Numbered from the stretch's first letter, positions 11,112 through 11,708 are shown. The stretch: DNA of 45,899 nt from a virus (IMGVR_UViG_2711768067_000020), one strand, 5' to 3'. Program-made: numbers and translations. Notes: generated from the letters alone by a model not told the origin.

Positions 11112-11544
11112 ATGTTTGGTATTTTTGGTAAAAAAAGCCCGCAGAGCGGCAACGGAAATTAAAAAGTTTGAAAAACGCGATCTGGCACAGGTGGTGATTA
11201 ACGCCGCATACCTGGTGGCCTGTGCAGATGGTGAATGTGAGGCTTCCTAGAAAGCGAAGATCGAACAGGTACTGCGTAATCAGCCTGCGCTGTCCGCGTT
11301 TACGTCAGAAATTAATGCGATTAGCGCAACCATTATCGGTCAGCTGGATACGAACTTTAAAATTGGTCGTCGTGCGGCGTTACGTGAGATCGAGGATGTG
11401 AAACACGATACGCGTGAAGCGGAAGATGTGCTGGATGTGGCGGTGGCCATTGCGGAGGCAGACGGCGAAATTGAGCCGGAAGAGCGCAAGGTGCTGGAAG
11501 AGATTGCCGGTGTTCTGGGTCTTCGTCTGGAGAATCACCTGTGA
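11112..11544 (+). pseudogene. TerB-like (tellurite-resistance TerB-family) gene interrupted by in-frame TAG, possibly also frameshifted
   Basis: Hand translation: MFGIFGKK.. then (shifted frame) ARRAATEIKKFEKRDLAQVVINAAYLVACADGECEAS-TAG-KAKIEQVLRNQPALSAFTSEINAISATIIGQLDTNFKIGRRAALREIEDVKHDTREAEDVLDVAVAIAEADGEIEPEERKVLEEIAGVLGLRLENHL; TAG at about 11248; no track ORF spans it. Confidence 0.55.
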
Positions 11545-11708
11545 CGGTAAAACTGCGCCTGACTGTGGCTGCACTCCTGCTGTTTCTGGTGGTGATGGTG
11601 GATTTCACCAGCAGAATCATGTCGGTGCTGGCGGATGGGGTGCTGGTCTGCGGCATTGTGGTATTGCTGTGGCCGGTGATAAAAAGAAACAGCCTGCATA
11701 ATGCTTGA
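11541..11708 (+). CDS. Small hydrophobic membrane protein (about 55 aa)
   Basis: GTG overlapping the TerB-like stop; two hydrophobic stretches LTVAALLLFLVVMV and VLVCGIVVLLWPV; below track cutoff; coordinates approximate. Confidence 0.35.
   Translation: MTVKLRLTVAALLLFLVVMVDFTSRIMSVLADGVLVCGIVVLLWPVIKRNSLHNA

Follow-up and report, generated by a model that had tools for sequence, protein, structure and literature searches.

The DNA considered here is a 45,899-nucleotide stretch of viral sequence from an E. coli prophage of the Shiga-toxin type (IMGVR_UViG_2711768067_000020; this whole stretch is called the window below), in which the late antiterminator gene is followed on the same strand by tRNA genes, the two-gene tciA-tciB cassette, a small RNA and a nanS-p-like esterase gene. 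The elements of this region, including the subdivisions of the disrupted tciA frame, are as follows:

9725..10546, + strand: late antiterminator Q, 273 aa (Pfam Antiterm PF03589, E=2e-54)
10627..10646, + strand: terminator-like site just 3' of Q, a candidate tR'
10690..10765, + strand: tRNA with anticodon CAT, homologous to Stx-phage ileZ
~10773-10852, + strand: degenerate argN homologue, missed by ARAGORN and Rfam
10866..10942, + strand: tRNA-Arg (TCT), homologous to argO
10955..10982, + strand: terminator-like hairpin (10955-10974) with T-run, between the tRNAs and tciA
11112..11544, + strand: tciA (TerB family), very probably a pseudogene; ancestral 143-codon frame with two lesions
11112..11162, + strand: short ATG frame MFGIFGKKSPQSGNGN then TAA (11160-11162), 16 codons, the product of the 7-A shift
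11116..11250, + strand: N-terminal frame in the TerB register and the only open one there; TTG start, 44 codons, TAG; +1 relative to the ATG
11130..11136, + strand: A7 homopolymer in the context GGT-AAAAAAA-GCC, a +1 insertion relative to the in-frame forms (A6 or AAAAAGAAA)
11248..11250, + strand: in-frame amber codon TAG, standing for GAG (Glu46, the final residue of the first ADGxxxxxE TerB motif)
11251..11544, + strand: untranslated tciA remainder, 97 codons plus TGA (11542-11544), carrying the second ADG motif
11541..11708, + strand: tciB (DUF3927), intact, 55 aa, small and hydrophobic (Pfam PF13064, E=3.3e-17; PHROG 1470 TciB-like, E=5.6e-30; WP_000216653.1)
11713..11885, + strand: STnc100-family sRNA lying 3' of tciB and 5' of the esterase gene, a strong match (Rfam RF02076; 101.5 bits, gathering score 47)
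11910..11928, + strand: terminator-like hairpin after the STnc100 sRNA
12023..13873, + strand: nanS-p-like esterase (DUF1737 + SASA + DUF6645), the gene that follows stxAB in Stx phages

The placement of the cassette can be defined from its flanks. Window 10650-11001 aligns to the ileZ-argN-argO segment of phage Stx2a_WGPS2, ending 32 nt before stx2A, and window 11724-11848 aligns just 3' of stx2B in the same phage, with a nanS-p homologue coming next in both. These flanking alignments indicate that the tciAB cassette (~11002-11723) occupies the exact slot of stx2AB, which is the stx-equivalent position at which the initial annotation had placed it. The stretch between the two window tRNAs was considered as a possible novel tRNA, and this was rejected in favor of a degenerate argN homologue, with conserved acceptor and T arms but a scrambled D arm and anticodon arm, which carry a 3-nt insertion. 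Among the matches listed, related loci carry 35 instances of tRNA-Arg(TCG) as against 82 of the tRNA with anticodon CAT and 77 of tRNA-Arg(TCT). The Q protein, at 273 aa, is long, and its residues 171-218 give a sub-threshold match to the DnaJ-type CXXCXGXG zinc finger (28.8 bits against a cut-off of 32.7), which overlaps the start of the best Antiterm stretch (178-265). On the other side of the cassette, the STnc100 sRNA belongs to a family related to the PasD sRNAs, and TerB has been listed as a conserved neighbor of PasA/PasC (preprint 10.64898/2026.05.13.724894).

When the TAG is read as sense and one A of the homopolymer is deleted, the disrupted gene yields a product of 143 aa, close to the protein of about 140 aa that had been expected from a sense reading of the TAG. 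This repaired translation is TerB-like, as first proposed: it matches Pfam TerB (PF05099) over residues 31-138 (E=6.3e-14; 52.7 bits against a cut-off of 24.4), PHROG 632 "tellurite resistance" over positions 1-143 of 143 (E=2.1e-68) and the Klebsiella TerB protein (PDB 2JXU) over residues 15-137 (phmmer E=5.7e-8). The end-to-end extent of the family matches implies that the open frame beyond the TAG reflects homology and not chance. The combination that marks the TciA/TciB module, namely a TerB-like ORF of ~143 aa with an adjoining or overlapping TciB/DUF3927 gene, is also found in the window. Judged by these profile and protein matches, the DNA belongs by descent to the TerB domain family and to the phage TciA/TciB module.

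A tblastn search of phage genomes recovered full-length homologues in 129 records, spanning TciA of phage JLK-2012 (97%), the Erwinia jumbo phages (~70%) and P1 and D6 (40-51%), with further homologues in Pseudomonas, Klebsiella, Vibrio and Salmonella phages. A TciB-like gene lies directly 3' of tciA in JLK-2012, P1, ChrisDB and Fostie. Thus, tciA is a TerB-fold accessory ("moron") gene that is carried together with tciB by lambdoid, P1-like and other phages. The names TciA and TciB are assigned by homology only, as is the case for their use in P1-like plasmids (PMC9603915), and the literature on tciA/tciB, DUF3927 and TerB in connection with prophages yielded homology-based names and mentions of synteny, with no functional study found. 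An assignment to anti-phage defense was tried and rejected, the PADLOC match being sub-threshold (E=0.0058, 13.7 bits); NCBIfam returned weak similarity to DjlA and YmfL, below the cut-off.

Comparisons with known TerB-containing systems place the gene more closely. The ter (terZABCDE) operon encodes the partners terC, terD and terE, whereas tciA of the window has no ter partner nearby, its neighbors being Q, the tRNAs, the DUF3927 gene, the sRNA and the nanS-p-like esterase gene; by its neighborhood it is thus not a member of a ter operon. Klebsiella TerB (2JXU) is of the same fold family and has a Glu aligned at the TAG position, but its sequence similarity to the window tciA is low, and the latter is a stand-alone phage gene paired with a DUF3927 gene. 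A further counterpart is the P1-type tciA (PMC9603915), which is 40% identical over the full length, shares the conserved N-terminus, both ADG motifs and the downstream TciB-like protein, and adjoins tRNA genes as in the window. The P1-type cassette differs in its plasmid-prophage context, in possessing a third gene, tciC, and in having an intact tciA (PMC9603915).

Direct reading of the sequence places the ancestral start of tciA at the ATG 11112-11114 on the + strand, where the AGGA core of AAAGGAA ends at 11104 with a spacing of 7 nt, and where the ATG is followed by TTT GGT ATT TTT GGT and then the A-run. This run had been tentatively counted as seven A with a possible frameshift; it does consist of exactly seven A, and the ATG is out of frame when set against the forms with six A or AAAAAGAAA. 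The A7 run puts ATG 11112 out of register with the TerB frame, with the consequence that the ATG-initiated N-terminus MFGIF-KK(K) and the TerB domain do not share a frame in the window. The alignment of relatives gives six A in O145 strain RM13514 and AAAAAGAAA in the O45 form (the O45-type lineage reads AAA AAG AAA ACC here), with the ATG in frame in both. Between the O145 and O45 lineages, codons 3-5 differ solely by synonymous changes when read in the ATG frame (GGT/GGA, ATT/ATC, TTT/TTC). An MFGIF-like N-terminus is present in 6/6 aligned phage homologues, and MFGIF-KK(K)-R is kept in the homologues of P1, Fostie, Erwinia and Pseudomonas phages. The synonymous-only changes together with the conserved N-terminus point to the ATG frame as the ancestral and selected one, and hence to the 7-A form as a genuine +1 frameshift.

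The second lesion, an in-frame TAG that had been reported near 11248, lies at 11248-11250. The first acidic motif of the protein reads ADGECEAS-E, its final Glu being the codon that is TAG here, and the second motif, ADGEIEPEE, lies 3' of the stop, such that the two ADGxxxxxE motifs do not fall within one unbroken frame in the window. Beyond the TAG, the stretch 11251-11541 is stop-free for 97 codons (about 96 had been counted by hand) and includes ...VAIAEADGEIEPEERKVLEEIAGVLGLRLENHL; these are 97 of the 143 codons of the ancestral tciA frame. The feature as originally delimited ran to 11708, which is a real gene end, albeit that of the separate and intact tciB, with tciA itself ending at 11544. 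Within 11251-11544, there is no in-frame ATG after the TAG, and the in-frame GTGs at 11398, 11428, 11437, 11443 and 11491 have no well-spaced Shine-Dalgarno sequence as judged by eye. An Rfam scan of 10500-12100 (E<=1) found no family over the lesions, its matches being the two tRNAs and the downstream STnc100 sRNA. A residual ORF from the first of these GTGs (11398-11544, + strand, 48 aa) coincides with PHROG 3920 in its exact extent (residues 96-143 to positions 1-48 of 48). This 48-position profile, labeled 'unknown function', probably represents no more than the C-terminal ORF left over in TAG alleles, as picked up by gene callers.

Across orthologues, the codon at 11248 is GAG in O157:H7 FRIK944 and O45:H2 FWSEC0003 and TAG in 14EC007 and O145 RM13514, the nucleotide difference being G-to-T. 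The sense codon GAG for Glu is also found in tciA of JLK-2012 and in all the distant homologues aligned, with Glu occupying this position in 6/6 aligned phage homologues as well as in TerB of 2JXU. The orthologues do not end at this position, as would be the case if the TAG were their normal terminus, and instead continue past it with GAG. Thus, intact orthologues with a sense codon exist, and the lesion removes conserved sequence.

Closest to the window among annotated copies is CR535_RS16800 of E. coli 14EC007 (NZ_CP024131.1), which is 100% identical over window 11040-11760 (721 bp), has the same 7-A run and TAG, and is followed, as in the window, by the DUF3927 gene and the SASA esterase gene. 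It is annotated by RefSeq/PGAP as a pseudogene, 'tellurite resistance TerB family protein, internal stop', and the O145 copy is likewise a PGAP pseudogene with an internal stop. Upstream, 14EC007 has a DNA methyltransferase gene, a tRNA-Ile and an IS421 insertion, whereas the window has the 273-aa Q and its own tRNA arrangement. The copy in O157:H7 FRIK944 (A9L45_RS12005, protein WP_001303509.1) lies in the same slot, after ileZ-argN-argO and before the DUF3927 gene and nanS-p; its DNA is 99.6% identical and has the same 7-A run, but it carries GAG and not TAG, and it is annotated as intact with 142 aa from a TTG (equivalent to 11116-11544; locus L002, 2577-3005). The TTG start used for such 7-A/GAG alleles gives the N-terminus MVFLV in place of the conserved MFGIF-KK(K), and it overlaps the better-placed ATG. 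The "intact" RefSeq proteins of this kind, WP_001303509.1 for instance, are probably annotation rescues of a frameshifted gene, as suggested by comparison of their N-termini. The intact state is seen in TciA/TciB of Escherichia phage JLK-2012 (from the O55:H7 strain DEC5E) and in the O45:H2-type WP_000466957.1, which show 96-97% protein identity and have the same two-gene cassette between Q/tRNAs and yjhS (nanS-p). In these, tciA is 143 aa long and ATG-initiated, with neither the frameshift nor the stop. The upstream tRNAs of JLK-2012 (Asn, Thr, Gly) differ from those of the window.

The frequency of the lesions was assessed in 5,426 complete E. coli genomes (RefSeq). The 721 bp around the gene have a match in 840 of these 5,426 genomes, and each matching genome has a median of 6 such places. 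The number of records with an exact copy of each diagnostic 61-mer was:

GCT TCC TAG (window haplotype): 521 records
GCA TCC GAG: 297 records
GCT TCC GAG: 50 records
7-A start region: 556 records
6-A start region: 8 records

Megablast with such short 61-mer queries misses the divergent O45-type copies. The 521 TAG records span O157:H7, O145, O26, O103 and O121, in addition to strains without a stated STEC serogroup. Since these counts come from RefSeq complete genomes, of which STEC form the majority among the matches listed, they are biased, and the copies are not independent; clonal STEC lineages have been heavily sequenced. A second sample, of 83 full-length copies, drew on 78 IMG/VR contigs (from among the matches listed in a pattern scan), on 4 RefSeq loci and on the window itself; these divide by N-terminal type as follows:

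7 A: TAG 30, GAG 14
6 A: TAG 1, GAG 3
O45-type N-terminus: TAG 2, GAG 32
8 A: TAG 0, GAG 1

In this sample of the matches listed, TAG occurs on three N-terminal backgrounds and is always linked to GCT, and it is found in 30/45 copies with a 7-A or 8-A run as against 3/38 of the in-frame ones, the copies again being non-independent. Few sites vary among the 7-A-type copies, and a divergence of ~4%, nearly all of it synonymous, separates the two main lineages; the TAG lineage itself is too uniform and too mosaic to yield a meaningful dN/dS. One IMG/VR contig (L056) has an O45-type tciA with a short window-type patch that includes GCT-TCC-TAG and is bounded on both sides by O45-type polymorphisms. 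Judging by these polymorphisms, the nonsense codon seems to have been brought in on a short tract of gene conversion.

Both lesions are thus common, circulating alleles of E. coli prophages and not private mutations, and within the O157-type lineage, copies with at least one of the two are in the majority. This bears on the initial suggestion that the long intact frame downstream of the TAG signals a very recent inactivation. As a private event, this does not hold, the exact TAG haplotype being present in 521 records across many serotypes and on three N-terminal backgrounds; that no further stop interrupts the downstream frame is owed to the shallowness of the whole allele family (a few percent at most), and not to any newness of the lesion.

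Taken together, these features make it very probable, as far as can be read from the sequence, that window 11112-11544 is a non-functional allele of tciA, i.e., a pseudogene. The extra A of the 7-A run would part the conserved ATG/MFGIF-KK(K) N-terminus from the remaining frame, and the G-to-T change that turns the GAG of Glu46 into TAG would end any product after 44 aa, leaving out roughly two thirds of the TerB fold. As to the order of events, the 7-A shift might have come first, and a single origin of the TAG might have followed in a copy with 7 A and the linked GCT. Exchange between lambdoid prophages, of which there are often several per genome, could subsequently have moved the TAG onto other backgrounds by recombination or gene conversion. 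The constant association of TAG with GCT on three backgrounds fits such a single origin with spread by recombination, and the linkage of TAG to the 7-A run agrees with a second hit in a gene that was relaxed beforehand. Independent evidence of decay is little, and a possible counterpoint to decay may be seen in the very high frequency of the lesions, in the finding that 0/10 unique TAG haplotypes among the matches listed have a further stop or frameshift, and in the intactness of tciB.

Several other readings of these observations were weighed. We give next to no credence to the idea that the TAG or the extra A, or both, arose through faulty sequencing or assembly: some sequencing technologies do often misjudge homopolymer length, but the exact 61-mers recur in 521 (TAG) and 556 (7-A) independent complete-genome records and in many IMG/VR contigs, and one complete genome is identical to the window over the entire 721 bp. 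The TAG is reproduced in hundreds of independent complete assemblies, which goes against the sense codon at this site that had been named at the outset as a refutation. More substance attaches to recoding, whereby the TAG would be read, either naturally or by an amber suppressor tRNA of host or phage, and the 7-A run would be evaded, through a +1 slip of ribosome or RNA polymerase or through a start at TTG 11116, such that some full-length TciA is supplied. The 97 codons open past the TAG and the lack of secondary lesions in the 10 TAG haplotypes among the matches listed would be in keeping with this, as would the preponderance of the 7-A form over the 6-A form (556 versus 8 records) and the choice of TTG 11116 by PGAP as the start of the 7-A/GAG alleles. 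A-runs are also known slippage sites. However, a run of 7 A supports slippage only inefficiently, and of the three stop codons UAG is the one least prone to leak in E. coli, a species in which natural isolates seldom have amber suppressors. A check of the host for an amber suppressor tRNA had been proposed earlier; the ARAGORN search made here covered the window at default settings, 10500-11100 at a relaxed threshold, and 130 other loci, and it found no tRNA with a CTA anticodon, the anticodons recovered from the window and the 130 loci being CAT, TCT, TCG and a few others. Moreover, the intact orthologues have an ordinary GAG and an in-frame N-terminus, with no recoding signal conserved. The TAG and the 7-A run are themselves polymorphic, the O45-type lineage and the distant homologues having a sense codon and an in-frame start. 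Initiation at the TTG would forfeit the conserved MFGIF N-terminus, and the overlapping ATG is better placed with respect to the AGGA ending at 11104, 7 nt away. Recoding is hence a most unlikely account of this allele.

It is also decidedly unlikely that selection maintains the TAG allele, the 7-A allele or both, be it because loss of TciA is advantageous (e.g., in the presence of multiple lambdoid prophages), because tciB is tuned thereby, or because the 44-aa peptide is functional. In support of such selection, one might point to the TAG outnumbering the other alleles of its clade (521 records as against 297 and 50 for the GAG haplotypes), to its movement onto three N-terminal backgrounds, once via a short conversion patch, and to the persistence of an intact tciB beside it, with the tciB start overlapping the tciA stop. 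Yet, hitch-hiking in clonally expanded and heavily sequenced STEC lineages combined with prophage recombination suffices to explain this pattern, and recombination among lambdoid prophages is well known to be frequent. The linkage of TAG to the earlier 7-A lesion is likewise as expected of a second hit in a relaxed gene, and nothing indicates that a 44-aa fragment ending within the first ADG motif folds. The broader proposition that these alleles, nonsense and 7-A, reflect selection or functional tolerance in tciAB and not neutral decay, either as a repeatedly spreading tciA knock-out that alters TciB output via lost translational coupling or through low-level recoding at the A-run and the TAG, is very unlikely in our estimation; if it were true, the dominance of the same broken allele in Stx-type prophages across E. 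coli serotypes would have a reason.

Under the favored reading of tciA as a pseudogene, the consequences for the adjoining gene can be considered. The GTG start of tciB overlaps the TGA of tciA in the sequence GTGA (11541-11544), and a consensus scan of the + strand found no promoter of their own for tciA/tciB, the sites present being the terminator-like ones at 10627-10646, 10955-10974 and 11910-11928. Translation of tciA would halt ~290 nt upstream of tciB, which would be expected to lower tciB translation via lost coupling. Translation of tciB is therefore, from this arrangement, probably coupled to that of tciA and reduced here. The tciB gene itself is intact in 32 of 33 TAG copies, in a sample that includes IMG/VR contigs among the matches listed.

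In itself, the pseudogene call matters little, in that public annotation already holds it: the identical allele is annotated as a pseudogene in RefSeq, and the feature is real, ordinary and already known. It is mildly notable that this one pair of lesions is very frequent and has spread in mosaic fashion, and that 7-A alleles are probably mis-annotated as intact. The slot equivalent to stx in many stx-negative lambdoid prophages is taken by a P1-type tciAB cassette, and the allele pattern may be seen as a small, clean example of one nonsense mutation spread by recombination between co-resident lambdoid prophages.

The complete genome most like the window as a whole is that of E. coli DCE7 (NZ_CP090611.1; 92% coverage, 98.7% identity). 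Its slot (locus L131, 3033-3395) contains a different and shorter TerB-family pseudogene, also labeled 'internal stop', which is preceded by a DUF1133 protein gene and not by the 273-aa Q, with no annotated tRNA genes upstream. This variant indicates that the slot can contain more than one kind of disrupted TerB-like gene.

Mildly notable, too, is the recurring placement of tciAB beside tRNA genes in unrelated phages. In Stx-type prophages, the cassette adjoins ileZ, argN and argO (window 10690-11708), and in JLK-2012 (locus L125, 2292-3286) it lies beside Asn, Thr and Gly tRNAs. In P1 (locus L126, 316-1976), there are Asn and Thr tRNAs upstream of tciAB and an Ile2 tRNA downstream, and in the Erwinia jumbo phage ChrisDB (locus L127, 186-1409), tciAB is found beside Trp and Cys tRNAs.
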